Origin: an uncultured Verrucomicrobiota bacterium
Lineage (GTDB): Bacteria > Verrucomicrobiota > Verrucomicrobiia > Limisphaerales > MWDV01
Direction of reading: 5' to 3'
NCBI GenBank assembly: GCA_964634255.1
Contig: CAZWJC010000008.1
Span: forward strand, 381 to 64,380
DNA length: 64,000 nucleotides
Both the position numbers and the translations under genes were made by a program. The notes beneath the pieces are model-generated. The model worked only from the letters and a program-made list of their open reading frames with translations, had not been told where the DNA came from and searched no databases. Each line of letters opens with the position of its first letter. The first letter of the stretch is position 1. Positions 2,655 through 54,200 of this stretch are shown piece by piece.

Positions 2655-3533
2655 ATGAAGACAAGACGAATCTCAGATTGGTTGAAAACCCTGCCGCTGG
2701 CGGCCCTGTGCGCCACGGCCCTTCCGCTCGGCGCGCAGAATCTGACGCAGCACTGGAAGCTGGATGACGCCACTCTGACCTTCACCGATTACCTGGCACC
2801 CCTCATCAATGAGGTGGCGGGAGGTTCGCAGGCTTTCGTCCACAACGGCACCAACGCGTCGCCTGCGCCGCTGGCTGCCCAGCCCGGCGCTCGGGGGACA
2901 ACCGGGACTTCGGTTTTGTTACAGAACCGATACGAGCACATTGAATTGGGAAATGTGAGCCCGCGCACCGGGGCGTTCACCCTGGCGCTTTGGTTTAACC
3001 GAGACAGCGCTGCCACCTCGGGATTCGACCTGACCAGCAACCAAGAGCACATCATCTCCGCCAACCAAGCCCAGGCGGGCCGGTGGAACCTGAACGCTGT
3101 CAGCTTCAACTCTGCGACGGAGACGTTCAGCTTGCAGCTCTTCAGCAACCCGGGAGGTTGGACCGGCAGCGGCACCTCCAGCTCGTTCACGTTTGCCAGC
3201 GGGCTGACCAGCGACACTTGGTACCATTTCGCCATGACGCGTGACAGCGCCAACACTCTTACGTTCTACCTGAATGGAACGGAGGTAGCCTCACGCAGCA
3301 ATGCGAACGACTTCACCGAAGGCACCAGCGGGGTCTGGCTGGGGCTCGATCCCGCGCTGACCACGCCCGCCTCACGGGCCTTCACCGGCGCCTTTGACGA
3401 CGTGCGATTCTACGACGGTCCGTTGAGTGGCAGTCAGATTGCGGCTTTGGTCCCCGAGCCTGCCTCGTTCTCGCTCCTGCTCATCGTGGGGAGCGTTTTG
3501 GGGTGGGCCGCAAATCGGAAGCGTGGGTATTGA
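2655..3533 (+). CDS. PEP-CTERM-anchored LamG/concanavalin-like lectin-domain protein
   Basis: N-terminal signal peptide (MKTRRISDWLKTLPLAALCATALPLGAQ) and a LamG-like core (FTLALWFN...WYHFAMTRD...LTFYLNG...FTGAFDDVRFYD). The C-terminus VPEPASFSLLLIVGSVLGWAANRKRGY has the PEP motif, a TM helix and a basic cluster. Confidence 0.8.
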   Translation: MKTRRISDWLKTLPLAALCATALPLGAQNLTQHWKLDDATLTFTDYLAPLINEVAGGSQAFVHNGTNASPAPLAAQPGARGTTGTSVLLQNRYEHIELGNVSPRTGAFTLALWFNRDSAATSGFDLTSNQEHIISANQAQAGRWNLNAVSFNSATETFSLQLFSNPGGWTGSGTSSSFTFASGLTSDTWYHFAMTRDSANTLTFYLNGTEVASRSNANDFTEGTSGVWLGLDPALTTPASRAFTGAFDDVRFYDGPLSGSQIAALVPEPASFSLLLIVGSVLGWAANRKRGY

Positions 3534-10920: not shown

Positions 10921-11097
10921 AGCGGCAGAACCTGCCAACCCCAGCGGGTGGCTTCCCTGCGCTGCGGACAGGGACTGTCCGCGGTCCGATGCCTCAGATG
11001 TGTGGGGATTTCGTTCGCCGTGACCGTCACTTCCAGTCGCACCGAGCAGCAGCCTGTCACTTGATTGCCAAGGTTGTTTGAGGCAGCCTGTGCAACC

Positions 11098-14000
11098 ATG
11101 AAGTATTCAGTTCGCTTGCGCGCCGTCGCTTTGTTTCTGACGGCGGTTGCCGCGGTTCTTGTTTGCCGACTCGCATCCCCTCCGCCACCGTCCGGACAGA
11201 GCGCCGCCGCTTCCGTAGATGCCAGAGCGAACACCCCCGCTGACGCTGGGCCAAACCTGTCGCCTGCATCAGCTCAGCCCGCCGCTTCCGCCCCGGTTTT
11301 GCCTGTCCCCACGCCGGTGGCTACGCCTGAAGGCAATAGCGTTTCGCGTGGCACGAATGTCTTTGCCTCCTTTGGCGAGTGGCAGACGCGGTTCGCCGTG
11401 GCAGACGCCACCACGCGCGCCCAATTGGAGAACGAAGGTGTGACCCTGGCGCACGCTCGGCGGGCGGCACTGCGCGAGTTGATCGTCCGCGATCCGCGCA
11501 AAGCTCTGGAGGTGGCGCTCCCGCTTGCTTCACGCACCGGCCTGCCGGGGTCAGTCAGCGCGCTGCTCGAGGAACACATCAGCGCCCGAGCCGATCTCAA
11601 TGTCATCTTTGCCCGACCGCAGCCGGGTCAGGAGCAAAGCTGCTCCGAGCCGGTCATCCGCACAGTCCAGTTGCCCGGGCGTTTCTATTACGCCTACACT
11701 TACGGTCGGCGATTGGGCCAGATGTCCACGCCCGCCAGTTCCATCATCGGCATCGCGGTGGACGACCGGCTTGCATTGCTGGACAAGCCGTATCGCGTGT
11801 TGGAGACGGAAGAAGTCACAGCACTGGCGAACCCTGCCGCACTGCTTTCGTCTGGCAATTGTCCGGCGTGTGGTCGGACCCTGCCCACAGCGACGGCAGA
11901 CGCCACTTTTGTGGACACGGGCGGAAGCGTGATGGCCTTGCATTCGGCGGCCGAGGCGCCGGCATATTTCACAGCGTCAGATGGAACCTTGATTTGGGCC
12001 GCGGGCGGTTCCGGTGGCACAGGAACAACCAGCCCGGTGGTTCCAGAAACCAGCAGTCAGGGCAACAAGAAGTTCCTGTTCATCCGCGTCCGCTTCGCCG
12101 ATGACGACCAAGGCTACGAACCGGAAACCGATTCCCAAGTGCGCGGCGACTTGGACACGACGATGCGCCGGTTCGCGGAGCAATCGTACGGCTCGTTGCA
12201 GGGCACGTACGCCTTCACGCCCACGCTCACGCTGCCCAAACCGCGCTCCGGCTACATGAACGGATGGAGCGACGTGGACGGCATGTCGGCGCTGATGACC
12301 GACGCGAAAGCGGCGGCCGGCGCCATTGCCTCCGACCCCGCGTTCCCGGGCGTCGCGTATCCGTTTTTGCCGGCGAACTACAGCCTGTTCGTCGCGCGCT
12401 GGAACGGCGAACCGGGCGGCTGTTGCAGCTACGGTGGCGGCGGCAACGCCTGGATCCGTTGGGACGGCGCGTCAGTGCTCATCCACGAATGGGGACACGC
12501 CGTCGGCCAACCGCATGCGAACTGGTGGAATCCCACGACGGACGACCCCATTGGCCCCGGCACGCACGAGGAATACGGGAACAAGTTCGACAACATGGGC
12601 GGCGGCGGCATCGAGGAAGACTTCGGTGCGATGCACAAGGCGGTGGTGAAATGGCTGCCGGCGACGAACTACTGGACCGTCACAAGCAACGGGACGTATC
12701 GCATCTATGCCCACGATCAGCCGACACTAACTCCAGCCAACCGCTACGGTGTGAAAGTCTTTCGCCCCTCCCGCGACGACACACAATACTGGCTGGAGCA
12801 CCGTGCCTACACGGTCAGCGGCGCCAACGCGCTCTTCTGGACGAACGGCCTCGCGGTCATGCGGGAGTGGGATTGGGAGCTGCTCGATATGACGCCCGGC
12901 TCGGCGAAAGGAAAGGACGACTGCACCCTCACGATCGGACGCACATGGAGTGACACCGCGGCGGGAATCCACTACACGCCGGTGGCGCGCGGCACCGCGC
13001 CACAGCCGTGGGTGGACGTGGTGGTGAACTTCGACGACGACGCGCGCCCCAATCATCCGCCAGTAGCGGTCGCGACAGCGAGCAGTTACTCCATCGCGAC
13101 CGGCACGAGCATCTCGCTTACCGCCACGGCGTCCGACCCCGATGGCGACACGCTGGCGTACGCGTGGGATTTCGGCGATGGCAATATCAGCGTCAACAAC
13201 CTCGCGACACAGACTAAGAACTGGAGTGCCGCCGGCAACTACGTCGTGCAGTGCGTCGTCTCCGATCGGCGCGGCGGAACGTGCCGCCAGTCCACGTTCA
13301 TTCGCGTGGGCACGCCGAGCGACTACAGCATCTCCGGGCGCGTGACTGCGGCGGACGGCACGCCCATCGCCAACGCGCGCGTCTCTGACGCTGCCGGGAA
13401 TTTGACCTTCAGCCGGAGCGATGGCTCCTACACCTTGGGCCGCCTGAGCGCCGGCTCATACTCACTCACTGCGGTTCGCAATGGCTACAAGTTCGCCCCG
13501 GTCGCCCGTACCATCACCGTCGGCCCCAGCGCGGTGGGAGCGGATTTCACCAGCGCTACAGTCATCGGACCGGGCTCGGGCCTTGCGCGGCAGGTCTGGC
13601 TGAACATCAACGGCAGTGCCGTCTCCGATCTCACCAACAATGTCCGCTTCCCGAACAGCCCTGACGCCACGGAGGCCTTGGCGGACGCGTTCGAGACGCC
13701 GCTGGATTGGAACGAGAGCTACGGGCAACGCCTGAGCGGTTGGTTCGTGCCGCCCCTCAGCGGCGGGTACCGCTTTTACATTGCGTCGGATGACGCCAGC
13801 CAGCTTTTCCTGAGCCCCACTACCAACGCGGCCAACAAGGCGCGCATCGCCTACTTGACCGGTTGGACAGACAGCCGCAACTGGACCGCCAACGCGTCGC
13901 AGAAATCCGCCTTGATCCAGCTCGCAGCCGGACAGCCGTATTACATCGAGGCTCTGCACAAGGAAGGCAGCGGAGGCGATAACCTCGCCGTGGGCATTGA

Positions 14001-16407
14001 CCTGCCCGACGGTACGGAAGAGAAGCCCATCCTCCATCATCGCCTCATTCCGTTGAGCAGTCCGCCCGTTCCCGCGCGTGAAGTCTCCCTGGTCGCCAGC
14101 GATCCGACTGCGACGGAGGGCACGGATACTGGCGCGTTCACCTTCACCCGCACTGGCGACACCACGGAGGCACTCGACGTGTTTTTTAACGTCTCGGGGA
14201 CTGCTGGCTACGGTGCCGACTACTCCGCCACCGGATTGAAGCGAACGATCCCCGCCGGTTCATCCAGCATTGAGCTGCTCATCTCTCCGGTGAATGACGC
14301 CGTCGCTGAGACGGCCGAAACCGTGGTCGCGACGCTGGTGACTGGAACGAACTACACGGTGTCGCCCTCGGCCGACAGTGCGCGGGTAACGATTAACGAC
14401 AACGACGGCACGCCCGCTGTTTCCATCGTGGCGAGCGGGCCGAACGCGTCGAAGACCGGACCGCAACCGGGGCGCTTCACGATTCAACGCGCCGGCATGG
14501 CCACCGCGGCGATCGCCGTCAACTACTCAATCACGGGCACCGCGGCCAACGGCGTGGATTACGCCCTCATCACCAACAAGGTCACGCTCGACGTTGGGCA
14601 AGCCACCGCGGACGTCGTCATCTCGCCAACGGCCACGACGGCCCTCGAAGCGCCGAAGACGGTGCTGCTGACCCTGACTGCTGGCACTGGCTATAGCGTC
14701 ACCAGTCCGGCCAGTGCCACGGTGACCATCGCGCAACCTGGGCCCGGCTTTGGCCTGTTGCGGGAATGGTGGACGGGTATTGGCAGCGCGGGCACGGTGG
14801 CGACGCTGACGAACTTCGCCAGCTACCCGGCGTCGCCCACCGGTCGCGAGTATCTCTCGACCAGCGCCGAAGGGCCGCACGATTGGGATGACAACTACGG
14901 AAGCCGCCTGCGCGGGTGGTTCATCGCACCGGCGACGGGCGCGTACTATTTCTTCATCGCCTCGGACGATGGCGGCGAGCTGCGGCTGGGCACCGGCGCG
15001 CTGGCCTCAAGCGCCCGCCGCATCGCCTACGTCAACGGCTGGGTGGATTACCACAACTGGACCGCCCAGGCGAATCAGCGGTCCGCCGCCGTCGCGTTGG
15101 TTGCCGGACAACGCTACTACCTCGAAGCCCTGCATGCGGAAGGCGGCGGGGGCGATCATGTTTCGGTGGGCGTGCAATTCCCCGGCGGCGCGTTGGAGCG
15201 CCCCATCACTGCACAGTGGCTCGAACCGTGGTCGGACAAGGGCACGCTCGTGGCGGCCTTTGCCAGCGTGCCGACGGCAGGCGAGGCGGGCGCGTTGGGC
15301 GAATTCACGCTGAAGCGTACCGGCGATCCCAGCGCGAACCTGCCGGTGACCTTCACGATTACCGGCACGGCGTCGAGCGGGGTTGACTACACGGCGCTGG
15401 GTACGTCCGCGACCTTCACTAACGGTCAAAGCGAGCTGAGGATTCCCGTTCGTGCCCTGCTCGATGCCACCATCGAAGGCCCGGAGACAGTCATCCTGAC
15501 GCTTCAAGCCAACGCGGCGTACGACCTCGGTTTCTCAAACGCGGCCACGGTCACCATTGTCGGGGATCCTCCGCGCGCGACCGTGAGCGCCACCGACTCG
15601 AATGCCGGCGAGGCCGGGAACAACACGGGCACGTTCCGCATCGCGTTCCCGAGCGCAACCTACGGGCCGGTCACTTTCAAATACGTGCTCGGCGGCACCT
15701 CGACACCAGGAGCGGACGTCGCCCCGTTGCCCGGCTCCGTTACGCTCGCGCCAGGGCAAAGCGGAACGAATATCACCGTTACACCGCTGGCCGACGAGTT
15801 CGTGGAGGGCCTGGAATCGCTCACCCTGACACTACTGCCTGGGAACGGTTATCTCGGCGGAACAGCGACCAACGCCACCGTGATGATCTCGGACGCCAAC
15901 ACAAACCATTCGCCGGTGCTGTCCACCAACGCGAACCAAACCCTGTTCGCCGGGCAGACGCTCACCCTCACCAACACGGCGACCGATCCGGATCTGCCGC
16001 CGCAGACGCTCATTTTCAGCTTGGTGGGCGCACCGGCAGGAATGCTGGTTGACCCGGTCAGCGGTGTGTTGAGTTGGCGACCGGGGCTGGCCCAATCACC
16101 GCTCCTCACTCAGGTTCAGGTGACGGTCAGCGACAACATGTCGCCGAGCCTTAGCGCCACCCAAAGCTTCTGGGTGACCGTGAACCGCCCGACCACCACG
16201 TTGGCTTCACCGGCGCTCACCGCAGATGGATTCACATTGCACCTCACTGGCGATCCCGGCCCCGACCTGACGATCCAGCATTCAACGAACCTGCTGGATT
16301 GGGTCACGTTGTGGACCACAAACTCACCGGCTCTGCCAATCGAATGGACTGACACCGCCGCCACGAACGCCACGCAGGGCTATTACCGTGTATTGCTGGG
16401 CCCGTGA
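11098..16407 (+). CDS. Giant exported zinc-metalloprotease-like / PKD / PA14 / Calx-beta / cadherin-like surface protein (1,769 aa)
   Basis: ORF 11065..16407 with ATG at 11098 (MKYSVRLRAVALFLTAVAAVLV, signal-like). HEWGHAVGQPH (HExxHxxGxxH) lies at 12484-12516. The PKD motif is ASDPDGDTLAYAWDFGDGN, and a CarboxypepD_reg-like segment begins ISGRVTAADGTPIANARV. There are two PA14-like units (YGQRLSGWFVPPLSGGYRFYIASDDASQLFL and YGSRLRGWFIAPATGAYYFFIASDDGGELRL) and about 7 Calx-beta-like units (e.g. ATEGTDTGAFTFTRTGD...). A cadherin-like unit and a C-terminal ...QGYYRVLLGP module close the protein. Confidence 0.85.
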   Translation: MKYSVRLRAVALFLTAVAAVLVCRLASPPPPSGQSAAASVDARANTPADAGPNLSPASAQPAASAPVLPVPTPVATPEGNSVSRGTNVFASFGEWQTRFAVADATTRAQLENEGVTLAHARRAALRELIVRDPRKALEVALPLASRTGLPGSVSALLEEHISARADLNVIFARPQPGQEQSCSEPVIRTVQLPGRFYYAYTYGRRLGQMSTPASSIIGIAVDDRLALLDKPYRVLETEEVTALANPAALLSSGNCPACGRTLPTATADATFVDTGGSVMALHSAAEAPAYFTASDGTLIWAAGGSGGTGTTSPVVPETSSQGNKKFLFIRVRFADDDQGYEPETDSQVRGDLDTTMRRFAEQSYGSLQGTYAFTPTLTLPKPRSGYMNGWSDVDGMSALMTDAKAAAGAIASDPAFPGVAYPFLPANYSLFVARWNGEPGGCCSYGGGGNAWIRWDGASVLIHEWGHAVGQPHANWWNPTTDDPIGPGTHEEYGNKFDNMGGGGIEEDFGAMHKAVVKWLPATNYWTVTSNGTYRIYAHDQPTLTPANRYGVKVFRPSRDDTQYWLEHRAYTVSGANALFWTNGLAVMREWDWELLDMTPGSAKGKDDCTLTIGRTWSDTAAGIHYTPVARGTAPQPWVDVVVNFDDDARPNHPPVAVATASSYSIATGTSISLTATASDPDGDTLAYAWDFGDGNISVNNLATQTKNWSAAGNYVVQCVVSDRRGGTCRQSTFIRVGTPSDYSISGRVTAADGTPIANARVSDAAGNLTFSRSDGSYTLGRLSAGSYSLTAVRNGYKFAPVARTITVGPSAVGADFTSATVIGPGSGLARQVWLNINGSAVSDLTNNVRFPNSPDATEALADAFETPLDWNESYGQRLSGWFVPPLSGGYRFYIASDDASQLFLSPTTNAANKARIAYLTGWTDSRNWTANASQKSALIQLAAGQPYYIEALHKEGSGGDNLAVGIDLPDGTEEKPILHHRLIPLSSPPVPAREVSLVASDPTATEGTDTGAFTFTRTGDTTEALDVFFNVSGTAGYGADYSATGLKRTIPAGSSSIELLISPVNDAVAETAETVVATLVTGTNYTVSPSADSARVTINDNDGTPAVSIVASGPNASKTGPQPGRFTIQRAGMATAAIAVNYSITGTAANGVDYALITNKVTLDVGQATADVVISPTATTALEAPKTVLLTLTAGTGYSVTSPASATVTIAQPGPGFGLLREWWTGIGSAGTVATLTNFASYPASPTGREYLSTSAEGPHDWDDNYGSRLRGWFIAPATGAYYFFIASDDGGELRLGTGALASSARRIAYVNGWVDYHNWTAQANQRSAAVALVAGQRYYLEALHAEGGGGDHVSVGVQFPGGALERPITAQWLEPWSDKGTLVAAFASVPTAGEAGALGEFTLKRTGDPSANLPVTFTITGTASSGVDYTALGTSATFTNGQSELRIPVRALLDATIEGPETVILTLQANAAYDLGFSNAATVTIVGDPPRATVSATDSNAGEAGNNTGTFRIAFPSATYGPVTFKYVLGGTSTPGADVAPLPGSVTLAPGQSGTNITVTPLADEFVEGLESLTLTLLPGNGYLGGTATNATVMISDANTNHSPVLSTNANQTLFAGQTLTLTNTATDPDLPPQTLIFSLVGAPAGMLVDPVSGVLSWRPGLAQSPLLTQVQVTVSDNMSPSLSATQSFWVTVNRPTTTLASPALTADGFTLHLTGDPGPDLTIQHSTNLLDWVTLWTTNSPALPIEWTDTAATNATQGYYRVLLGP

Positions 16408-16444
16408 ACGAGGCGGGGCGAATCGCTCCTCATGACATGCCCGG

Positions 16445-19400
16445 TCACTGGCTGAGCTTTAGCCGATAGAAGCGCGTGAGCCCAGTCACCGGCAGTTCTG
16501 CGCGGTAACGACCGCCGCTCAACTGCGGCTGAGTTTCGCAGCGTGTCCAAGCGGCGCCGGCGTTCAGACTCGGCGACTCCTGCAACTCGCACCCCGCGCA
16601 AGCCGCTGGCCATTCGACCACTACCTTGCCGCTTTCGAGGCGCACCGCGAGCGATGTGCCCGACACTTCCACCGCACGGGTGAAGCCCTGCGGCGCGCTG
16701 ATTGTCCAGTCGCCCGTCCAGTTGCCGGCTTCCGGCAGCACAAGATCACGAACGGTGGTCCATGTCGCCGCGGCAGTCAGGTTCGTGGCGGAGACGAGGG
16801 CGTAGCGCTGGTCCGGTAAACCGTAGAGGCTCAGTACCGCCAAGCCGTTGGTGGCGTGTTGCAGATCAACAATCGGCTCGCGTGCGATCACGAAGACCCG
16901 GCCCGCACCCGCAGCGCCACGTTCCAGCGTCCGCCCGTCGCGTAGGTAACCAACGAGTGATTGCACCGTGAGCGGCACGATGGCCGAATGCTCGGCAGGC
17001 CCGGCCTGGAAGGCCAAGCGAGTGAGCGTCAGGCTGCCTTGCAGCGAAACGTCCGCGGGGCTTGTGAACTGGAGTTGGAAACGGTTCGAGCCGACTTGTT
17101 GGATGCCCGACGATGCGACTTCCGAGGCGAGCAATTGCAGCGCGAGGTTCGTCAATCGGCTTAGGTCCGTTTCCAGCACGAACGTCAGGTTGGTCAGGTC
17201 GGCGCCGCTGTCGAGGCGCAGCGGGACGGAGTTGTTCAAGCCGACCAGAAGATTCGTCGAGCCGACGTGCAACGTGAAGTCGGCGCGCGTGTCGCGGACG
17301 ATCACGGTGAGTTGTTGCGTCGCACTCAGGCTGGGGGAGCCGTCGTCGTAAGCCACGATGGTGATCGCGTTCGTGCTTGGCCCCTGGAGATCGCTCGGGC
17401 GCCAGCGGAGGACGCCATTGGTTGCGTCGAGAGACACACCGGTCGGAACGTCCGAGCCGAGGCGATAGCGCAGCTTGTTGGCGGGCACGTCGAAGTCCTG
17501 AGCGCTGCTGGCGGCGGTGAGCAACGAGCCCTCGTTCACGGTCCGATTGGTGAAAGTGGCGAGCACAGGTGCGGTGTTCACCTCACGCACGATGATGGTC
17601 AACGGTTGCGTGGCGCTGGCCGGCGGGATGCCGTTGTCCGTGGCTGTAACGGCGAACGTATTCGTGCTCGGGCCATTCGCTTCGCCAGTTACCCAAGTAA
17701 GTTGGCCGCTGGCCGCGTTCAGGACGACGCCGGCTGGTGCGCCACTGCTGAGCGCATAGCGAATTGCCGAGCCCTCCGGATCACTGGCGTTTAGCGTCAG
17801 TTGTAGTGTGCCGCCCTCCTCAAGAGTCTGTGTCGCCGGGGCGGTGAGCAAAGGCGCTTGGTTCGTGAGCGTGGCGGAAGTCGTGGCATCGGGCGTTGTG
17901 GGCGGAGCTTCGCGATTGCCCCGTTCATCCGTGGCGATGCTGTAGAACGCGTAACGCGAGCCGAGTTCGCCGGAGAACATGGCCGCGGGCAACGGCGTGT
18001 GCTGGAGCCAGGGCGTGAACATGCCGTCATTCACCGACACGAACACGTCGTAGAACGCCACGCCGCTGCCGTTGGTGTCGGCACCGTTCCAGGCAACCTG
18101 GAAAGCAGGTGGGCTTTGCGCGGCGAGCTCGGCGACCGCGCTGGTGGGTGCGGTGGTGTCCGGCTGCGGCGCGGGCGTATAGTAGAGCGTGTAAGCCCCC
18201 GCGCTGTTGAAGTCGAGCAGGTGGAGGACGTTCTCGCTGACCGGTCGCCGGCCCATACCGATGAAGGTGCGGTCCGTCGTCCACGCATTCGTGCCGAGCG
18301 GAATGCGAACGCCATCGCTGACATGGACGACGTTCGTGAGGATGAATTCGCCTTTGCCCGGCTCCGGAACGCGCAGGTAAGTCCAGCCCGCCAGCATCGG
18401 CGCGGTGAGTTGCACCACGAGGTTCTGCGCCGAGGGCGGCGCAGCCACGGTCGCGGTTTCGACGACGCTAACCGAGTTCGTGCGGCCATCGCTGAGGTAG
18501 AGTGTGTCCGGCAAGTCACGCTCGTCGGCGATTTCATTGACGAGGAAGTCGGGCTTGCCATCTTCAAATGCACCGCCCGCCCAGACGAGATGGTTCATCT
18601 CGTGAATGGTTACCGATTCGACCAGCGAAGCCGCCCGCCCGCCGAGCAACTCGTCGTGCTCGAAGGTCGCGTTGTAGTCCAGGAACAGGCCTTGGAGCGT
18701 GGAGGTCAGGAGCCAACGCCCGATGGCGGTCTGTCCGGGCTGAATGTCGCCGAAGGTCGCTGTGAGCGATGGCGTCAGGTTTTGCCCGGCCACTTCGGTG
18801 GCAAGAATCTTGAAGTCCACCAGCAGTCCCTTCTGGTTCTCGACGATGCGAGGTTGGGCGGAAGCGATCTTGAAGTTCTTCGCCACGCCGTAGCCTGTGT
18901 TGCAGACCATCACGGCGAGTGAGAACGGCTGGGCGGGTTCGATCACGTCGGTGAACGGATCATCGCTGAACACGTCGCGCTGGTGGAAGTAGTCCACCGT
19001 GAGCCGCGCGTTCGGATAGACGTTGACGGCCGCCGGCGCCATCACGGACGCGGACGGGACGCCGCCGACCAGGTAAGTCATGGCGCCACCGACGTAGTAT
19101 TGAGCGACGCCGTTGGTGGCCGCCGCGTCTGTCGGCAAGATGACCCAGCGTGCCTGTCCCGTGCTGGCCGCCGGCATTGCCCACAACTCACGGCCGATGG
19201 CAAAGTCGTTCGTGGCCGGAATTCCAGGATCGGTCACCGTGAGGCCGGCGAGTTCTGCCGGCAGGATCACGAACCGGTCGTTGGCGAGTTCACCGGACTC
19301 GTCGTAGATGGACAACACCACATACAGGTCGGTGATGGGGGACTCCGCCTCGTTGACGATTTCCAGCATTGCGCCAACTGCCTTCCGCGTGAAGGTGGCG

Positions 19401-22400
19401 TCCTGTTCCATCTGGAGTTTCACGGTGGCGCAGACCCCGGCGCCGGACGCATCCTTGGGACTGCGACTGGCCGGCTTCACCGAGGCGACCGGTGTGGCAG
19501 GAGCGGGCTGCGGCGGGAGCGATTCATAGGTTATCGTCCGCGAGCGAGTGGTTGCCGCCAACGCGGTGTTGCGAGTCCCGGCGCCGGATGTGCCCGCCGG
19601 AGCGCCTGGGGACTGATTCAATTGTGACGCGCTCGCCACGCCGAGTATCTGTGCGACGCTGTCCGCGTCGAGTTCGGGCAGAACTGGCGCGAGCTGCTGA
19701 GCCTGAAGGAGCGGGAGGCAGGAGTTGGTAATCAACGTTCGCGAGATGCCGTGTTTCACGTAGCGCTCGGTTTGTTTTACGGTGACAGAGCCTTCAATCT
19801 CCACCTTGGCCACCAAACCATCGAAGCAGCTTTCCAGCTTGGGCGGGCTGTCGCTGCAGGCGCTGTATTTCAAACTCAATCCGGTTTCAAATCCTGCCGC
19901 CCCTTTGGCGCTGCCCTTGTACTTGAGATTCCCTTCTTCCACCGACAAGGTGGCCGTAGCCTTCACACCCGCAAAGGCCTTGCCGCCGAGCGTGAAAGTC
20001 ATGCAGAGCCTCGGGTCCTGGAAGTGGCATTTGGTGGACAACTCCAGTTCGCCGGAGCCGTAAAGGGTGAACTCCACACCCGCGAGCAGGTCCGCTTTCG
20101 CCTCGATCGGTGCGGCAGGCGGTTGCTTGATTTCCCAGCCCAGCTCCGGCTGGAATCCCAAGCCGATGACGGTTTCGATGCCCACGCCCACTTTGGTCTT
20201 GGTCTTCAACCCGCGGTTGCCGTTCGTGTCGCAACAGTTGCAGAACTGGCCGGAAACGGACGTCGTCAGGCGCACGCCGCGCAACTTAAGGCCGGGCGCT
20301 TGCACGGCCAGGATGCTGTTGATGCTGTCTTTGATCGGGCCGGCCAAGTCGTAGCGCAAGCCGAGTTGCGATGTCCAACAATCATCAGTGCCGCAACTGC
20401 ACGCCTGCATGGCCGTCACGTAGTTCTGGCTATCGCTAAACGTGAGATCGGTCTTGCCCGAAGGCGCGCTTTCGCCCGGCAGGGCGCTCGTGGGCGGGGG
20501 GGGGGCCAAATACGGGATGCGCGACGTGCCGTCTTCGCCCGGTTTGCTCTTGCAGTCACCGACCAAACCCCAGAGCAGGACCGGCACTTTCATGGGGATG
20601 CCCCGCGGTCCGCAGATGTATTTGTAACCCAGGTACGGCCAAAGATAGCAATCGCTGTCGCCGGCGTCCTTCGGCGACAGCCCGCCCCCGGCGCGCTTCC
20701 GCTGGATCAGGACAGGGACTGTGATCGTGCTGTGCGCCGGGAGTTCGCCGAGCTCCTTGAGCAACGGAGTGAAGGTCCAGTTCGCGTGACTCGGAAATAC
20801 GAACTGCGCGTCCTGGGCGGCGATCAAGCCGTGATTCTTGATCGTGAAGTTCACCTGCGTCTCGTCACCTTGAATCTGCGAGAGGTCCACCACGTTGGGC
20901 TCGATCGTTACGACCGGCGCCGGCACGGTGGTTTCAAACGTGGTTTCCAGGGTGATCTTCGTCCGATCCTCGATGGCGATTTCTTCCACCTTCCAGGTGT
21001 AGCGGACGAGCTGAGTGCGCAAGAAAACGAGTTGGTCGTTGGTTTCGCCCGGCTTCACATCCACGGTTCCGGTCGTGGTGTCGTGCTTGGCGACCGCGGC
21101 CTCCAAATTGTAGCGGCCCTCGGGCAGTTCCTCGAACGCCAGTTCTCCCTGCGCGTCGGTTTCGCCCCGCGCCACCACCGAGTTGTCGAACGGATCCCGC
21201 AGCACCACGGCGACGCCGGCGAGGTTGGTGGGCGGCGAACCGTAGTAAGCCATTTCGTCCACCGTGGTGATCTTCAGCGTGCCGACCGCAGCGGACACGA
21301 CCTTCAGCTTGAACTCGACCGGATTGAACAAACCCTCGCCCGTCACGGCCAGCGTGCCGGTCAGTTCTCCAATGGCTTGTTCCGGTGGCGGCAGGAATTG
21401 GAGCGTGAAGTGATTCGTTTCGCCTGATGCGAGTGCCGGGATCGGATTGGTCGAAGCCACACTCAACCAGGGCAGATTGGGTAGCGCGAGCGTCAGCGGC
21501 GAACTGGCCGCGCCACCGGTGTTGATCACTTCCAGTTCGACGAAGCGCTGCTGGCCACGCACCAGGCCCACATTAAGTGAGCCGGGCAGCACCACCAGCC
21601 GCGGGCGCAACGGCTTGATGATCAATTCCACCGGCACTTCCACATACGCGCCTTCCGTCGTGGCGCACACAAACGTAAATGTCACCAGCGACTCCTCGTC
21701 CAGCAACGACGTGATCGAGTAACTCACCGTCACGCTGCCCGAGGCCGGGATTGTGTTGATGGCTTGCGCCTGCACCGCGATGTTCGCCGTCGTGCTCGCC
21801 TGCACGCTGAGCCCGTGCAACGGCAGGTCGGCTTGGTTCTGTAATTGGAACTGGCCGGTGAACGTTGCCAGCGAGCTCATCTGCTGTCGAATGGGCGTCG
21901 AGTTTGCCTTTAAGCCCAGCAGCGTGAAGTGATCCTGCGCGCTCACGACGGCAACGCCGGGATGATCCGCCCCCACTTCGTACGAGCCCGCCTCGCCGGG
22001 CAGAGGATTCCATTGGATAGCGTAACGCCCTTCGCTGTCGGTCAGGGCGGAAATGACGCGGCTCATGCCGTTGTGAACCACGTGAATGTTCACCAGCTTG
22101 AACGCCGCCGGGGCGCCCAGCGCATTCGTCGCGCGACCCTGTAACGGTACCGGTGTGCCCGCCAAAGCAGTGTCCACCCCCGCCTCAACCGAGGCATGAT
22201 AAGCCGCACCGACCGTGATGGCCTGCGGGCTCATCGCAGTGTTGTTGTCTTCCAGAATCTCCTCCACCGCACCGCTCGTGTCGGTCTGAACGAGGATCCA
22301 GTAGTTGGCGCAGGCTTGGGGCAGGCGAACTTGGAGCGTCTGCTCGAAGAACTGGCCGGGCGGTAACATGCCGTTGAAAGTGTATTGGCCGGCGAGCGTG

Positions 22401-28381: not shown

Positions 28382-28680
28382 AGGCAGGGCAGGCAGGTGG
28401 TTTCTCCGGAGGGATTGCGCTTGAATCTGGAACTGGTCTGGAGTGCAACGACCACACCCTGGCGAAGTTTGGAGAGCCAGCCTTTCGGGAGATGACCAGT
28501 TGAAACCCAACGGTCCATAGTTGACGCGAGGTTTATACCAGTCGCGGAGCTTTGCGGCAAGGTCAGGACGGATCAGGATTACTACGGTCTTGCCACCGGA
28601 ACAATCCGGAGGAGCTTGCTAGCCCGGGCCAGCGCTTTTCGGCGTGTCCAATCGGACCGGTTCGTGGTTGAATCGCGCCC

Positions 28681-33117: not shown

Positions 33118-35778
33118 TCAAGGCAGCGGCACCGCGCGCACCCGGAAGAAGCTCTGCGGCGCGTTGGTGTACGGGCCAAACCATTCGGTTTCTGGGAAAC
33201 GTCCCGGCACATTTGTCACCAAGGTGAGCGAGGCGACGTTGGTGCCGGCGAAGATGTCGTACGCATGATTCTCGTTGCCCGGCCAGCTCAACCGCGCCAG
33301 GGCGGTGTTCCATCGGGACAGGTCCAACACGAGCTTGGTATCGTCTACGGTCGGGTCGGTCATCAGGAGCTGTTCCGCGGCGTTGCTATAGCCATCGCCA
33401 TCTGGATCATCGCCGGGCGAGAGTGCCGCGAGGCAATCAACGTGGTTGATTTCCCAGTAATCATCCAGCCCATCGCCATCCCGGTCATGGATGGGCACCC
33501 CGTGCAGAATCAGGCTGACCTGGGTCACGGCACCGGTGTTGCCAATGAACTCGTCGCTGAAGGAGACGATCCAATCACCCGGTGTGCCTTCGAAGAAATG
33601 GTGCGTCGAGTAATACGTCCAATCTACTGGCCCGGGCGACGTGTCGGAGTTCAGGCGCTGGAGAACGCTCCGGGTGCCTGCGGGCGAATCCAGTGTGATC
33701 CGCACGTCGCTGCGCATGGGATGGTCGCTCAACACGCGTACGCCGACGTGTTCGCAGCGGAGCGTGTTGGTGACGTGGAATACGTAGCTGGTCGAGTTGA
33801 GACTCACTTGGGCCCGCACCGCGTCGTTCGTTTGCAGTAATGCGCGTAACGCCATGCCAGTGCTGTAGGTGATGAAACCCGAAGGCAACGGGGTGAAGTC
33901 CGTTCCAACCATCGGGGCGAACTGGTCGCCACCGGGGGTGCCGATACCGCTGCTGTTGGTCGCGAAATTATGCATGAAGGCAAACGCCGCCCCCCTGTGC
34001 GCTACGTTTTGGAGCGGGCCCGCGTAATCATTCCCGCTGCGCTCGATCAACACACCTTTGTTTGTCAGGTCGAGCGTGATCGGGTTGGTGGCGGGACCGA
34101 CGAAAACAAGGGGCAACTCGGAGGTTGGAGATTCGGCGTTCGGTCCGAGGCTGGGCAGCGCCAGGATGGAGGCGAGTTGGGGCGGCACGTTGGTGCCGGT
34201 GACCCGCAGCCGGAAGCCGGCATCCGGAATCGTTGCCGGGTTAGTGGTGGTCAGGGTGACCGTCGTCACGGGCGGGCGGCTCATCCACGCTCGGGCCAGC
34301 CGGACAGCTTCGCCCGCGTCCGGCACCCCAAAACCGTCGTTGTGGCTCACGAGGAAGCCCGCACCATTGGGGTGAAGGTCGGGATCCTCGAAGTCGAAAT
34401 GGCGCGAGGACAGGATCAGGATTTGTTGGACGTCCCGGTAGCTCAGATTCGGGTTCGCCGAGAGGATCAAGGCGACAACGCCTGCGATCTGCGGTGCGGA
34501 GGCTGAGGTGCCGCTGAAACCAAACGAACCCCACACGTAGCCATTCACATCTTCATGGGGCGGAAAGAAGTTGATCTGGTTGACGCCGCGTGTGCCGAGT
34601 AAGTCTGTAGTGAACAATCCATCCAACCCGACGGCGGCGTCTCCGCTGGGGGCAGCCACCAAGATGCAGGCGCCCGGCTCGCTGTAGGTCGTCGTTCGGC
34701 CGCTGATTCGGACGGCGCCCACGGTGATAACACGGGGATCGGCACTGTAGCCGTCATCATTCGCATTGGCCCCCTGCTCCCGATCGTTGCCTGCTGAACG
34801 CACCAGGACCTCGCCCAGTCCGCCCCGGCCTTGCGTCACGGCATTCGATATGCCGATCTCCTCCAGCAAAGTCAGGCCGTTCTGCAAAAGTCCGACGTGT
34901 GCCCAACTGTGATTCTGGACCGCCACGATGTTCGAAGCATACTGGAACATGTCCATCAGCCGCTCGTCGCTGACCAAGGTGGTGTTGGTCTTGTGGATCA
35001 CCCAGCTTGCGACGTTGGCGCTGGGGGCGACGCCGACCATACGCGCGTTGTTCAGTGTCGCTGCCGCAAGACCGGCCACTTCTGTGCCATGTGCCCAAGT
35101 GGCCGTACCGGCGATCGGATTCCCGTTGGTGGTTTGATTGTCAAAGTTGAAGTGCGGTGCTCCGGCCACACGGGCAGCCAATTCGGGATGGGCGAGCTCC
35201 ACCCCCAGATCCGCGATGGCAATGGTCACCCCCTGCCCAGTCGCCAATGGCCACGCAGCACGAACATTGAGGTCCACCCCGGCGCTGTCGCCGTTGTCGT
35301 TGCGATGCTCCAGCGGCCATTCATTCGCGAAAAACGCGTCGGTAGGACGAGCGGCGTAAGGACCGTGCCAGTCCACCGGTTGGTGCAAGACCGGATAGCT
35401 GGCCACCACGCCTGCGAGTCCGGCCAGCCGTTGCGCCTCCCGCGCCGCCGTCCAGGCGTCTGGAGCTTGCAGAATGATAACACCGGGCTGGACCATGCGC
35501 GCCACTTGCAGTTCACGCCCTGCAATCAACTCAGCCAAGGCAACCGCGTCCTCAAGTTGAACTACAACCCGGTCGCCAAACTCGACGACGGCGTTGGTCT
35601 CGCCCACTCGTCGGGCGGTAAGCCATCGGGCTTCGAGACCGTCGAGGGATCGTCTAGTGACCGCTGGTACTGCTTGGTACGTGTTGGCGTGAGGGGTCTT
35701 GAATTGAAATACCTCACTAGCCTGTGAGCCGAACTCCGAGATAACCACCAGCGCAAACACCAAGCTCGCTTGTTTCAT
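33118..35778 (-). CDS. Secreted subtilisin/kexin-like S8 serine protease with proprotein-convertase P-domain and thrombospondin-type-3-like Ca-binding repeats
   Basis: ORF 33118..35814. ATG at 35778 gives MKQASLVFALVVISEFGSQA, a signal peptide. The catalytic triad contexts are VTIAIADLGVE (Asp), WAHGTEVAGLAAA (His) and FSGTSASAPQIAGVVALI (Ser). The P-domain-like segment is VGVRVLSDHPMRSDVRITLDSPAGTRSVL, and DRDGDGLDDYWE and DDPDGDGYSNAAE repeats follow. The tail ends ...SFFRVRAVPLP. Confidence 0.85.
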   Translation of the reverse strand: MKQASLVFALVVISEFGSQASEVFQFKTPHANTYQAVPAVTRRSLDGLEARWLTARRVGETNAVVEFGDRVVVQLEDAVALAELIAGRELQVARMVQPGVIILQAPDAWTAAREAQRLAGLAGVVASYPVLHQPVDWHGPYAARPTDAFFANEWPLEHRNDNGDSAGVDLNVRAAWPLATGQGVTIAIADLGVELAHPELAARVAGAPHFNFDNQTTNGNPIAGTATWAHGTEVAGLAAATLNNARMVGVAPSANVASWVIHKTNTTLVSDERLMDMFQYASNIVAVQNHSWAHVGLLQNGLTLLEEIGISNAVTQGRGGLGEVLVRSAGNDREQGANANDDGYSADPRVITVGAVRISGRTTTYSEPGACILVAAPSGDAAVGLDGLFTTDLLGTRGVNQINFFPPHEDVNGYVWGSFGFSGTSASAPQIAGVVALILSANPNLSYRDVQQILILSSRHFDFEDPDLHPNGAGFLVSHNDGFGVPDAGEAVRLARAWMSRPPVTTVTLTTTNPATIPDAGFRLRVTGTNVPPQLASILALPSLGPNAESPTSELPLVFVGPATNPITLDLTNKGVLIERSGNDYAGPLQNVAHRGAAFAFMHNFATNSSGIGTPGGDQFAPMVGTDFTPLPSGFITYSTGMALRALLQTNDAVRAQVSLNSTSYVFHVTNTLRCEHVGVRVLSDHPMRSDVRITLDSPAGTRSVLQRLNSDTSPGPVDWTYYSTHHFFEGTPGDWIVSFSDEFIGNTGAVTQVSLILHGVPIHDRDGDGLDDYWEINHVDCLAALSPGDDPDGDGYSNAAEQLLMTDPTVDDTKLVLDLSRWNTALARLSWPGNENHAYDIFAGTNVASLTLVTNVPGRFPETEWFGPYTNAPQSFFRVRAVPLP

Positions 35779-35832
35779 TAATCGGCAGGCTACCGGGAAG
35801 TCGGAAAGAAGCAAGCGCCCGCGCCCGTGGCT

Positions 35833-40838: not shown

Positions 40839-41008
40839 CCTCTAGTTGTGGGATGCTGAGAAGGCTCGCGCCGGAGGTGTCCTCGGCGTGTCGCAACGGG
40901 TCGGCCACGCCGGTGAATCTGGCTTGGCTTCCCAGTTCTCTGGCGGAATATTTGCGAACTTCAGGCTTGCTTCTGTTACCCCGCCCTGTCGAAATTACCC
41001 AGAGATTT

Positions 41009-44000: not shown

Positions 44001-44923
44001 CGCCGGTGACCAACTTGATCGAGACGATTGAGACCAACATTGTCAGCGACTTCTTCGTGGTGTGGGAAAACCGCGATCTGGGCGGCTACGTGGCCACCAA
44101 CTACGTTGGTAATGTGACTGAAGGTGCCCTCCGGTTGGCCTTGGACGAGGAGGTCAAGCCCACGGGCATCAACTTGCGCGCCACTTACATCCCGCGGTAC
44201 ATCCGGCAACTGCGCTTGCGCTACCGGCCCAACTGGCCTTGCAGTGCCAGCCTGAACGCGACCAACGCGGGGGAGATGCTCTATGGCTGGAATCTGATTG
44301 AGACCAATGATGTGGATGGCAGCACGTGTGTGTTGATCAGCAGCACCAATCCGGCAAGCATTACCACCAGTCTGCCCTTCCCTGGATTTGGCCCGTTGCT
44401 CACGTTCACCTTCAAGGACGTCCTCACCAAGCCGAAGGAAGCCTTCTCCTTCATCACCGTGGACAATTCGATCTACACCGGCATCCCAGCCGGCGGACAG
44501 AAATTCCTGTTTGAGCCCGGAAACACGAACAACTTCGTGACCAGCTATCCCGCTCTGCCCTACGGCACACCCGTTCCGTGGCTGATGGCCAACGGAATCA
44601 CCAGCAACTTCGCCGCCGCCGAAACCAACGACTTTGATGGTGATCGCGTGCTCACGTGGCAGGAATACCGCGCCAACACGAATCCGAAGGACAAGAATTC
44701 CCGATTCGCCATCACGAGCATGACCACGGACTTCTATGGCCGGTACGAAATCACCTTCACCACGGCGTCCAACCGCTGGTACCGGGCAGAAGCATCCGAA
44801 GACCTCGTGAATTGGGAAACGCTGGAAGACAACATCCCCGGCACTGGCACGCCGATCACGGTGACGGATCCGCAGAGTCCAGCGGTGTCGACGCGGATGA
44901 ACTACCGGGTGCGGGTTTGGTGA
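41009..44923 (+). CDS. Large exported RCC1-repeat / Ig-like / putative-Ig / vWA-domain protein (1,304 aa)
   Basis: ORF 40625..44923; its 5' extension overlaps the SGNH gene, so ATG 41009 (MASLRSIN...ILWLAVVASVLTL) is preferred. It has about 7 RCC1 blades (AWGNNSDGQCSVP...GGLHSLAL...) and 2 Ig I-set-like units (YYWFHNGTLL...GLYHAIVSNVYG; YQWRFQGTDI...GGYSVVVTNVSG). Three putative-Ig units follow (SPFAYTITA...LPPGLTLNPLTGVISG). A vWA/MIDAS-like segment is HVIFISDGLDSSS...VHCIAFGD...TGGRMF, with a TSP3-like ETNDFDGDRV, and the tail ends ...MNYRVRVW. Confidence 0.8.
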   Translation: MASLRSINAHIELFGTGNQARSCFTRILWLAVVASVLTLRSTALGGAVWAWGNNSDGQCSVPPNLPAVTAVAGGGLHSLALTQDGRVLAWGWNVLNETNVPPGLANVVAIAANYGYSLALKRDGTVVGWGTVSNTIPAGLTNIAALAAGLDHCLALRRNGTVVSWGNSYAVPANLTNVIGIAAGDGHSVAVTASGQVVAWGKNTSGQADVPADLTNAVAVAAGNNHSLALRSNGRVVAWGDNADGQTSVPSGLANVVAIAAGGGHNLALKADGTITLWGRNNFGQASPSSLSDVVGISGGAYHSLALVGDASPVITGQPMNQTAMLTREATFRVLAVGSRPLRYYWFHNGTLLPGANAAALTLTDIEMSDAGLYHAIVSNVYGAVTSSPAMLTPVEPPLFVSVQPAEQNVSCGDQVGFQAIAGGFAPLSYQWRFQGTDIAGATNSDLVLPGILTNQAGGYSVVVTNVSGIVTSAVATLAVAVESPVITSPLTAVGTQGSPFAYTITALHAVSFSALGLPPGLTLNPLTGVISGTLLEAGSFETIILAANSCGQTAETLVVTIGSAIPVITSGGTVTGTEETAIASYRITATQTPTSFGAANLPSGLSLDANTGIISGAPIFAGTFTATISASNMWGVGSARLQFNVANRVISGLAVTDVSYNYHSPYLLDFEFTLRDGNNNGIVTQPSLLSAVCMENTHPGVSLALGPDGTAEQITATTLITNYVAETGVYITRNTGKVTSKITKTYLVLDYTESISDPILNGDANGDGISDGVDFMVSGAQYFVNQQPADAQIGVYEFHRDDLDPSQVLALTKDKALLNNAIAGIWTNNVNWFYAGSRCWDAVDAAILALGAANPDEQHHVIFISDGLDSSSAATPDQVIEDAQAGNVRVHCIAFGDNADTNTLGQITSATGGRMFLAEITSDLFDQFALISKDIQAQYTLRWASLRRDATEIAPFFLLSYQGYTAAPAEWTSRIDSTNREVYTSTFEEEVDDSVDPPVTNLIETIETNIVSDFFVVWENRDLGGYVATNYVGNVTEGALRLALDEEVKPTGINLRATYIPRYIRQLRLRYRPNWPCSASLNATNAGEMLYGWNLIETNDVDGSTCVLISSTNPASITTSLPFPGFGPLLTFTFKDVLTKPKEAFSFITVDNSIYTGIPAGGQKFLFEPGNTNNFVTSYPALPYGTPVPWLMANGITSNFAAAETNDFDGDRVLTWQEYRANTNPKDKNSRFAITSMTTDFYGRYEITFTTASNRWYRAEASEDLVNWETLEDNIPGTGTPITVTDPQSPAVSTRMNYRVRVW

Positions 44924-51210: not shown

Positions 51211-54200
51211 TCAGAATGCGATCACGCGGTAGAACCGCTGCGCGTTGGTTGCCGGGCTGTCTTGAAGCCAAGCCTTCCAGCCGTCATTCGTTATGCTGCC
51301 GGAGCAATCTCGCCAGATGGGATCGTCTAGGTCGTCCTTGCACTGCACCCGGGGATTGTCCCCCGGCATCAGCGGCCAGGAAAGCACCGGTCCTTGACCC
51401 GGTGTGGCAGGTGGCAGGATCACCATGGTAAATATCGCCGTCGCGAACAAATCGCCACTTGCGTTCAAGTCGTTTGCGGCAAGGTCCGACGCCCAAGACT
51501 GGATGAGAAGCGTCTGCCCGTCCGCGCTGAACCGGGCGCGCAGCGAGTGGTCATCTGCCGGTCCATCCGAAAAGCGGCTGGTGCTGAGGAGGGTGTTTAG
51601 GCCGGTCTGCCGGTCGTAAAGCATGATCTGGCGGAAGGCGCTGCAGGCTCCAGCCACGAGGTTGGTGGCCCAAGTGCGGTAAGCGACGAACCGCCCGCTG
51701 GGGCTGATGACAGGTGAATCTGATCCTCCGGAGCCAGGCTCAACCGAGTTCCACACATGGCTTAACAGAGACGTGGCTCCGCTATCGAGGTCTCGCAGGA
51801 ACACTTGATTCGTGGCGGCAAGTTGGCGGGCGTACGCCAGCCATTTGCCGTCGGCACTGAAGGCGGGGGCTGTCCAAGTGCTGGGAGAAGCCGCGGCCAC
51901 GCTCCACGTCGTGTTCGCTTCGCGGTCCATGAAGACCAACTGCGTGGCCGTTACCGACGCAATCCGCTTGCCGTCGGGGCTGCTCGCTACACCAAAACCG
52001 TAACTGGCGGACGTGGCATTGGTGAAAACCCGAGCCGCGAGCGAGGAGTCCCAGACGAAGCTGTAAACCGCGCCCGCGCCGTCACCGGGACGACTGAGAT
52101 ACGCCACGAAACGACCATCGGGTGTCATCGTCAGGGCGTCCACGCTCATGGTGGTGAGAGCCCAGTTAGTGGCCGATTGGGTGTCGCGAAGAAACAGATT
52201 GAGATTGCCCGTGAAACCGATGAAGTCCCCGGTGAGATAGCGCGCCTGACTGCGAAACAGGAGCCATCGGCCGTCCTTGCTCAGCAACGGTGCGGAGCAA
52301 GAGCCGTCGGAGGGCCGCCCGTCGGGTCTCCGGCTTGCCAGTACTGTTGCCACGGCCTGAAGGTCGCGCACGAAGATATCCGCCAACTTGTTGGTGTCGT
52401 CTGCCACGAGGTTCGTTGCGCTGCTGGCGAAGGCGATGAAACGTCCATCGCCGCTGATGGCCGGCTCAAACGAGGGGCCATTGCCACTCACGCCTGCAAC
52501 ATCGGCGCTCACCAGGATGGTCCGGCCCGTCGCCATGTCGCGCACGAAGACGTCGCGGTAACCATTGGTGTCGCTCGCCACCAAGTTGTCCGCGTCGCTG
52601 GCGTATGCAATGAACCGCCCGTCGTCGCTAGCAGAGAACTGGGTCAGGGCGCTCAGGCTGTTCGGCGTCGAGGAGGCCAAGGTCGGATGGCGGGCGGAGA
52701 TCAACTCGTTTGTGCCTGCGACCATGTCCCGGACGAACACGTCAAGCCGGTGGTTATTGTCGTCAGGGACCAGGTTGCCATCGGGGCACTCAAATGCAAT
52801 GAAGCGTCCATCGGCGCTGAGAGCCGGCACGGTGGCGCTGGTGACGCCGGCGGCGGTGCCATTCGTGCCCACATCCACCAGCGCGGTTGTCGCTGCCTGC
52901 AAGTCCCGCACATAGAGATGCCAGTCTCCGAGAGCGCCATTCGTCACCAATCCGGAAGCGTTCGAGAGAAACGCCACGTAACGTCCGGTGGAGTCCAGGA
53001 AGGGCCACGACGAAACCGAGTTCGTGGGGACGGCGCCGGAAAGACTGCTGCTGGCCAAAGAGATCATTCCGGAGGCGGCATCCCAAACCTGCACGCAGGT
53101 TGTTGTGCCTGCCACCCCGTTGCTGTTCGCGACGAAGGCGATCCGTTGGCCATCGGGCGTCAGGTCGAGGCTTCTCGAGTTCTCGGCGCTCGGGATGGAA
53201 GTCACTGCATTCGTGTGAATCAAGTCCGTGACGCCGGTTTCAAGGCCGTAGCGCAGGATGATTCCGGAGTAAGTCGAAGCCGGCAGCGGTGAAAGGCTCG
53301 CCTGGTAGGCGACGAACTTCCCGTCGGCGCTGAGCGCGAGGTTGTAGCAAATCCCGTTCGTCTTGCCCGTCACGCTTTGCACTGCCGGACGCATGCCCGC
53401 ACTGGCCCAGACATTCGTGCCCGCGAGACGGTCGTGGATGTAAATGTCGCCGACGGTGCGGACCCCAGGCATGAGATTCGTGGCCGTGCTGGAGAAGGCG
53501 ACAAACCGGCCATCCGGCGTGATCTCCGGCGACTCGGAACTGCCAACCGGCCAAAGGGCGGCCGGGTTTGCGGAGCGCGCCCCGACGCTGACCAGCGCTG
53601 TCACGAGTGCCACCGTATCGCGCACGAAGACGTCTGCGATCCGATTCGTGTCGTTCGGCACCAGATCATTCGCCTCGCTGACGAACGCCACGTAACGCCC
53701 GTCCGGCGTCATCACCGCGCTGCGCGACGCGCCATTGCCCGGGAGGCCGTTCGTGTTGGCGCTGACCAGCAATGTTGCCCCGCTGGACAGGTCGCGGAGG
53801 AACACGTCCGCCGCGCCGTTCGTATCGCCCGAGACGAGGCTGGGGGCGCCGCTTTCAAAGAGGGCGAACAGGTTGTTGGTCGAGAGCGCCAGCGGGAACG
53901 AATCGCCATCGCCGCCGCCGAGTCCAGAGGAGTTGACGCTGACCAGCGTCGTGGTCTGGCTCCATCGGTCGCGCAGGAAGACGTTGAACCGGGCGGGAAT
54001 GAGCGATGGGATCGGGGTGTTATTACTGGTGATGACGAGGTTGTTGGCCGTGCTGGCGAACAACACGAACCGACCGTCCTGGTTGAGAATCGGCAGGCAG
54101 GAATCGCCATTGCCACCGACCGGCGACGACTGGCCAGGATTCAGGAGCGAAACAGGCTGTACCCAAGCGGCGCGTGCGACCAAGGATACGAATAGGAAGA

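Follow-up and report, generated by a model that had tools for sequence, protein, structure and literature searches.

The locus described here raises the question of why large and otherwise unrelated proteins of one bacterium should end in the same way. It lies on a stretch of 64,000 nucleotides (nt) from an uncultured Verrucomicrobiota bacterium (contig CAZWJC010000008.1), and the whole of this stretch is referred to below as the window. The original prediction, drawn from the letters of the DNA, proposed that five large exported proteins encoded in the window share an unnamed C-terminal module ending in the motif [FY][FY]R[VL], possibly a sorting or anchoring tag. Our answer, to which as a whole we give a rough probability of 0.55, is that the module is a fibronectin type III (FN3)-like domain without the strand G, which would act as an autonomously folded, non-catalytic end module rather than as a cleavable tag of the sortase or exosortase type. 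Its role would most likely be binding or retention, holding exported enzymes and adhesins non-covalently on the cell envelope or on some polymeric substrate, with extra upstream copies acting as spacers.

Homology of the five C-terminal tails

Open reading frames (ORFs) were defined from stop to stop. Exactly five of those in the window have at least 850 amino acids (aa), and a homologous C-terminal module of about 65-75 aa is present in all five. Counting one internal copy, the window contains six copies, five terminal and one internal (Table 1). The Pfam architectures of the five proteins are all different, as expected of the unrelated cargo that had been described: PKD, PA14 and Calx-beta domains in one, a CARDB-rich giant, Peptidase_S8 with P-domain and TSP3 repeats, RCC1 with Ig, He_PIG and VWA domains, and PD40. 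Export of the five was also supported, since an N-terminal basic-plus-hydrophobic segment was found in 5/5 by a crude hydropathy scan (not SignalP).

Each of the five tail peptides quoted in the original prediction was found in the translations, with two corrections to what had been said of them. The interval given for the S8 protease, 33121-33310, has 190 nt and is out of frame; the quoted peptide reads correctly from 33121-33360 on the minus strand. The shared end of two aromatic residues followed by Arg and Val or Leu is present in four tails but not in that of the RCC1/VWA protein, which has N-Y-R-V with a single aromatic residue. A slightly wider form of the motif, [FYW][FYW]R[VLI] within the last 14 residues, was looked for in the 265 stop-to-stop ORFs that reach 100 aa; it occurs in 4, each of them one of the five ORFs of at least 850 aa, and the chance of the motif-bearing ORFs falling among the five largest is about 2.5e-8 (hypergeometric).

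Such likeness might in principle be due to chance or to composition, long ORFs merely happening to end alike, and one result spoke for this. When profiles were made from the five tails only, leaving out one at a time, the fifth tail was never recovered, so that a hidden Markov model of the five tails, the check first proposed, cannot show homology from five sequences. Because of this failure relatives were collected, and the profiles enriched with them then resolved the homology. The seeds were short metagenomic gene fragments and the tails in nine loci of Verrucomicrobiota genomes assembled from metagenomes; searches with the short tail profiles returned only gene fragments at contig ends, which are usable as seeds, not for the position of the module in full-length proteins.

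Independent profiles, containing non-window sequences only and excluding close orthologues, were run against the six-frame translation of the window. Four tails were found, with E-values of 3e-10 for the metalloprotease-like 1780-aa protein, 1e-6 for the giant, 6e-5 for the PD40 protein and 2e-3 (ranging to 1e-5) for the RCC1/VWA protein, the noise being at E > 2. The hmmsearch envelopes cover residues 1705-1780, 3980-4057 (of the stop-to-stop ORF), 972-1049 and 1378-1456, respectively, and each ends 0 residues from the stop. The fifth tail, that of the S8 protease, was joined to the others by hhalign, which aligned a profile of S8-type tails with the canonical profile at a probability of 94.7% and E 5.6e-8, with 67 columns in register. 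At the level of sequence the five tails are confirmed as copies of one homologous module, as had been claimed. Chance resemblance, to which we give next to no probability, is ruled out by the independent profiles, the hhalign link and the size of the family, whose members run to thousands; the restriction of the motif to the largest ORFs also stands against it.

The giant carries a second, degenerate copy in front of its terminal one. This internal copy was initially seen at E 0.52, and was found at E 6.6e-5 with one of the enriched profiles (A3) and at E 1.3e-4 to 0.03 with non-window profiles. The claim that the module is strictly C-terminal has to be given up, since even within the window the giant has a copy upstream of the terminal one, and internal copies are present in tandem arrays elsewhere.

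Table 1. Module copies and associated features of the window, with their coordinates
Feature	Position	Strand	Gene and sequence details
Terminal compact FN3-like module of the 1780-aa PKD/PA14/Calx-beta protein with HExxH	16177..16404	+	Gene 11065-16407; ends ...QGYYRVLLGP
Terminal module of the 4021-aa CARDB-rich giant	16448..16681	-	Gene 16445-28510; ends ...TRFYRLKLSQ
Second, internal, degenerate copy in the 4021-aa giant, directly upstream of the terminal copy	~16682..16891	-	Ends ...GFTRAVEV instead of RFYRL
Divergent S8-type module of the 898-aa subtilase/P-domain protease	33121..33354	-	Gene 33118-35814; conserved blocks LARLSWPG, PGRFPETEWF, FFRVRAVPLP
Bacterial TSP3-type calcium-binding repeat linker (DPDGDGYSNAAEQ) directly before the S8 module	33355..33408	-	Pfam TSP3_bac 26.5 bits (whole protein), E 0.002 (tail alone)
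Terminal module of the 1432-aa RCC1/Ig/He_PIG/VWA protein	44684..44920	+	Gene 40625-44923; ends ...RMNYRVRVW
Terminal module of the 1030-aa PD40 beta-propeller protein	51214..51447	-	Gene 51211-54303; ends ...QRFYRVIAF
Laminin_G_3 protein, 292 aa, with canonical PEP-CTERM tail (VPEPASFSLLLIVGSVLGWAANRKRGY)	2655-3533 (tail 3450-3530)	+	Pfam 20.3 bits against a cut-off of 20.7

Fold of the module and its relation to fibronectin type III domains

The module was rightly described as unnamed: none of the five tails is covered by a model of Pfam-A or NCBIfam, even at E <= 10, and the module copies of array proteins are likewise uncovered. Structure prediction, which had been proposed as a check, gave the same result for both tail types. 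For the canonical tail, that of the 1780-aa protein, AlphaFold with an alignment of 25 sequences predicted a six-strand beta-sandwich with a mean pLDDT (predicted local distance difference test score) of 86.8, and for the S8-type tail, modelled with a separate alignment of 29 sequences, the six-strand pattern is equal and the pLDDT of the domain is about 90. In a Foldseek search the PDB structures that rank highest are FN3 domains (TENCON, the FN3 of the pectate lyases Pel3/PelI, the sensor RsgI4 and the FN3 of collagen XX), with query-normalised TM-scores of 0.6-0.68 and best E-values of 0.007-0.03, none being at or below 0.001. A sequence-profile search of the PDB had as first match 3mpc, an "Fn3-like protein" (E 0.0023), whose chain continues for about 30 residues past the aligned YY.

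FN3 is a seven-strand sandwich made of an A-B-E and a C'-C-F-G sheet. Both models stop at six strands, the F-like one being the last, and the module would accordingly consist of strands A, B, C, C', E and F, the seventh strand G being absent. The conserved positions are W23, Y31, W43 and F70-Y71-R72-V73, and the core signature of FN3, with a Trp in strand B, a Tyr in strand C and Tyr-x-Val in strand F, is present. We regard it as very probable that the module has an FN3-like fold and that [FY][FY]R[VL] is its F-strand signature. It is because strand G would be absent that this signature (aromatic-Tyr-Arg-Val/Leu) comes to lie 3-5 residues from the stop.

With FN3 (PF00041) the module has in common the predicted Greek-key beta-sandwich, the Trp and Tyr of strands B and C, an S-x-D/N-L-x-x-W turn and Y-R-V in strand F, and its best solved matches, by sequence and (at E 0.007-0.03) by structure, are FN3 domains. 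It differs in its length, about 65-75 aa against about 90 for FN3, in its six predicted strands without G, and in escaping detection by PF00041 even where the same scan finds neighbouring classical FN3 domains. There was no match at the gathering score of PF00041 for the module copies of the array proteins P0047, P0048, P0062 and P0090, nor for the five tails (for these even at E <= 10), whereas like scans do find classical FN3 in P0052, P0080 and P0097. The module profile also matches classical FN3 arrays, such as that of P0044 with ...YYYRVSA.... In arrays of the P0044 type about 15 residues, corresponding to the FG loop and the G strand, separate YRV from the next repeat, as against about 5 in compact arrays.

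Position, constraint and possible function

At the level of 50% identity the profile matches 50,307 protein clusters with E <= 1e-3, a figure inflated by classical FN3 arrays, and 2,387 with E <= 1e-10. Few of the clusters carry organism names; the matches that do are all from Verrucomicrobiota, Verrucomicrobiae or Pedosphaera. The cargo includes proteases, the PD40 propeller, and RCC1/VWA, CARDB, DUF11, cadherin-like and LamG-like proteins. The top 150 matches are multi-copy proteins, which were divided by repeat period into compact (<88 aa) and FN3-like (>=88 aa) arrays, and tandem arrays of 3-9 copies are common among them. In 149 of the top matches about 645 of the 746 copies are internal, classical FN3 arrays included; of the 342 copies in the 87 compact arrays extending to the C-terminus 255 are internal, and 178 of these 255 bear the motif. 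RFYR[VLA] is found in internal copies of P0047, P0048, P0052, P0062, P0090 and P0063, the last having 7-8 copies. These searches show the module to be very common and uncurated. Its carriers are multidomain Verrucomicrobiota proteins exported by Sec, in which it stands at the very C-terminus, singly or as the closing unit of an array.

Two small module-ended architectures recur: a 145-aa protein that has a signal peptide and an IDWFTLDGGGG segment, and a family with "...GGGNWMGIDYV...". Their sources are P0034, P0018/P0023/P0024/P0027/P0030-P0033 and locus L007 at 12892-14397 on the minus strand.

The position of the module is where the reading of a non-catalytic binding or retention module meets its strongest objections. 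In the 210 kb searched for position, which comprise the window and the nine loci, 17 of 18 significant matches end 0-2 residues from the stop, the 18th being the internal copy of the giant. Among the arrays, 87 of 94 compact ones come to within 10 aa of the C-terminus, but only 14 of 55 with the FN3 period do so, which is a further difference from FN3; of the seven compact ones that fall short, two (P0080 and P0097) are identified by Pfam as classical fn3 arrays. Of the S8 protease the 120 best orthologues (54-100% identity) all have one module, which is terminal in 118. The terminal copy is also distinct in sequence. In 52 of the 87 arrays it scores best against the terminal-type profile (expected 25.4, z = 6.4, mean gain 5.8 bits), and F58, D60, R69, F70, Y71 and R72, positions that lie in the last two strands, are better conserved in terminal copies than in internal ones (paired Wilcoxon p = 6e-6, 87 arrays); for six conserved positions of the N-terminal half there is no difference (p = 0.78). 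Extra constraint confined to the last two strands is the pattern that would be expected of a recognised C-terminal hairpin, and so strong a tie to the C-terminus should not be seen in an ordinary accessory domain. The binding or retention role, finally, is one that we purely infer. All of this weighs against our reading. The stronger conservation of the terminal copy could alternatively be structural, because the end strand has no downstream linker.

The prediction that the module favours the extreme C-terminus, and this in proteins whose N-termini resemble signal peptides, is borne out by these counts. A refuting condition had also been named, that the module be a generic FN3 or Ig domain found equally often at internal positions; an FN3/Ig-like beta-sandwich is indeed what was found, but nearly all compact arrays run to the C-terminus.

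Could the tail, then, be a linear tag that is recognised by its [FY][FY]R[VL] and cleaved, as in the PEP-CTERM/exosortase and LPXTG/sortase systems? Such tags, like the module, are C-terminal regions common to unrelated exported proteins with many copies per genome, and the PEP-CTERM protein of the window suggests that systems of this kind exist in the genome. LPXTG, PEP-CTERM and GlyGly-CTERM (rhombosortase) tags are tripartite, being composed of a signature motif, a transmembrane helix and a basic cluster (PMC3237569). In the five tails neither a hydrophobic helix nor a basic cluster follows the motif, and the maximal 15-residue hydropathy of the last 45 aa is -0.45 to 1.11, compared to 2.08 in the PEP-CTERM protein, whose tail has the expected hydrophobic helix and is distinct from the module, as had been stated. 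Such tags are strictly terminal and never repeated internally, whereas the motif of the module recurs in internal tandem copies and is a buried beta-strand in a confidently predicted fold. The third residue of the motif varies among the 120 S8 orthologues, being R in about 64% and otherwise Q, H, K or E. Conservation within the S8 family is 0.62 for the tail, 0.73 for the catalytic domain, 0.77 for the P-domain and 0.53 for the N-terminal region, and the tail is, judging from these alignments, conserved like an ordinary folded domain under purifying selection. From the FN3-like fold and the presence of the same motif in internal copies it follows that the motif is the last beta-strand and not a linear recognition or cleavage tag; the internal motifs, the absence of a helix and the folded strand refute the linear tag for practical purposes, and we consider it extremely improbable. 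The canonical PEP-CTERM tail means that an exosortase-type system is probably present in the genome alongside the FN3-like tails.

An explanation that would account for the position more directly, and which we hold to be possible but clearly less probable than our own, is that the terminal copy is a folded export or attachment signal like the C-terminal domain (CTD) in type IX secretion (T9SS). A putative outer-membrane machinery of Verrucomicrobiota would read the last hairpin after Sec export and translocate or tether the cargo, upstream copies being spacers. The near-obligate extreme C-terminal site on diverse cargo with N-terminal signal-like segments argues for it, as do the occurrence of the module in all five of the window's ORFs with 850 aa or more and the specific conservation of the last two strands in terminal copies. 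Type A T9SS CTDs (TIGR04183/PF18962, Por_Secre_tail) likewise are small Ig-like sandwiches at the extreme C-terminus of diverse cargo with Sec signals, and in these seven-strand Ig-like beta-sandwiches the last two strands, the most constrained ones in the module, are the primary and critical signal (PMC4804311). The parallel is suggestive but not evidence of membership. The protein end is usually 3-5 residues past the motif, also in the compact arrays reaching the C-terminus, and is a Pro in 87 of the 120 S8 orthologues; one array-bearing protease lies directly after a cassette of GspF and pseudopilins. Against it, scans of the five 100-aa tails with NCBIfam and Pfam at E <= 10 gave no match to a CTD (TIGR04183, PF18962) or other sorting domain. 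The models have six strands rather than seven, and in place of a single CTD per cargo arrays of 3-9 copies are common; we know of no report of T9SS CTDs in tandem. The motif arginine can be replaced among orthologues, and the terminal conservation could be structural, as said above. The ORFs of the window that were scanned contained no match to the T9SS machinery (PorU/PorV/SprA and others) and no candidate for another, the neighbours being housekeeping genes, and searches of the literature gave no description. The T9SS is described in the literature as restricted to Bacteroidota, whereas the module is hosted by Verrucomicrobiota, a phylum in which, to our knowledge, no T9SS has been described. 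A more specific form of the proposal, in which the terminal G-less module is the recognition domain of an undescribed Verrucomicrobiota pathway for outer-membrane export or surface attachment, with the last hairpin (F-x-D ... R-F-Y-R) as signal and hundreds of dependent cargo proteins per genome, is a shade more doubtful still.

The missing strand itself suggests another possibility, which we think very improbable: the module might be an incomplete Ig-type fold, to which a partner (an envelope anchor or another subunit) donates the missing G strand beside the exposed F strand, tethering or polymerising the cargo in a manner likened to the donor-strand complementation of chaperone-usher pilins. 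Strand G is absent from the alignment and from both models, and strand F and the strand preceding it are the most constrained parts of the terminal copies. The AlphaFold sandwich is, however, confident and self-contained with its six strands (pLDDT 87-90), no partner was identified, and the internal copies of the arrays also lack G, being followed only by a short Pro-rich linker. Among known end domains PPC (PF04151), a beta-sandwich of some 70 aa, closes secreted proteases at their C-terminus and is sometimes duplicated. The module too ends secreted S8 proteases, but it has no sequence match to PPC, the two are separate domains within the same protein P0063, and the cargo of the module extends far beyond peptidases.

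Gene neighbourhood, cargo comparisons and meaning

In the neighbourhood scans of the window and the loci no sorting enzyme was found near the module genes, several ORFs there being without a family match. The neighbours in the window include pyrF, hisD, argH, infA, bioD, a prepilin-like protein and other exported proteins. A 283-aa ORF (50347-51198, minus strand) directly downstream of the PD40 gene and on the same strand has a prepilin-type N-terminal segment, its residues 18-46 giving weak matches to ComGC, GspG and Verru_Chthon cassette protein D. The two convergent genes of the 1780-aa protein and the giant end about 40 bp apart (16405-16447), and a scan for a terminator-like hairpin between them, at 16404/16448, was negative.

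Both of these proteins have regions without a Pfam match. In the 1780-aa protein (gene 11065-16407) an HExxH zinc-metalloprotease motif (IHEWGHAVGQPH) is located at about 12450-12480 on the plus strand, inside a region of about 600 aa. As this region has no Pfam hit, the catalytic domain of the "metalloprotease-like" protein is without family assignment. The N-terminal third of the giant (about 25000-28300, minus strand) is made up in translation of four Gly-rich repeats of about 220 aa (GLGYASASGPGAGGNWGDxGSGGGHGG ... GGGGGGRIALY ... GGAGT[IV]F), which have no Pfam match and a beta-helix-type look.

The array-bearing protease mentioned above is P0063, a 2994-aa S8 protease whose 7-8 module copies are C-terminal. 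It is encoded in locus L011 (1-18985, on a contig of 10.5 Mb) directly after a cassette composed of a homologue of GspF of the type II secretion system, three genes with Pfam N_methyl (prepilin-type) matches, two further ORFs and a gene for a 1385-aa protein, with weak matches to Verru_Chthon cassette proteins D, C and A. This adjacency is a single case and may be a coincidence.

The S8 cargo was also searched without its tail, to look for relatives ending in a known tag instead; all of the 120 best matches were orthologues that keep the module. The sole exception in tail type is the S8 orthologue of locus L007, which has a canonical-type tail in place of the S8 type. A tail swap between LamG proteins was considered for the LamG/PEP-CTERM protein of the window and a module-bearing neighbour of the S8 gene in L007, and was rejected as the two have no significant similarity. 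The literature on the motif and on C-terminal domains of Verrucomicrobia yielded nothing relevant.

How giant enzymes and adhesins are transported across the outer membrane of Verrucomicrobiota, or retained on it, is poorly understood. A very large family undetected by Pfam-A and NCBIfam is now defined by its predicted G-less FN3-like fold, its almost invariable C-terminal place and the constraint on its terminal copy; although its fold is of a common kind and its motif structural, the family is very large, unannotated and unusually bound to the C-terminus. Should the positional bias not be due to recognition, the case still cautions that what looks like a conserved "terminal motif" may be simply the final strand of a common fold cut short. 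With a curated model, tens of thousands of C-terminal regions now called "hypothetical" would gain an annotation, and exported cargo would be flagged in metagenome-assembled genomes. Phylogenetic profiling is the route by which exosortase and rhombosortase were found, and if it is true that the bias reflects recognition by a machinery, the family gives the phylogenetic profile with which that machinery may be located.

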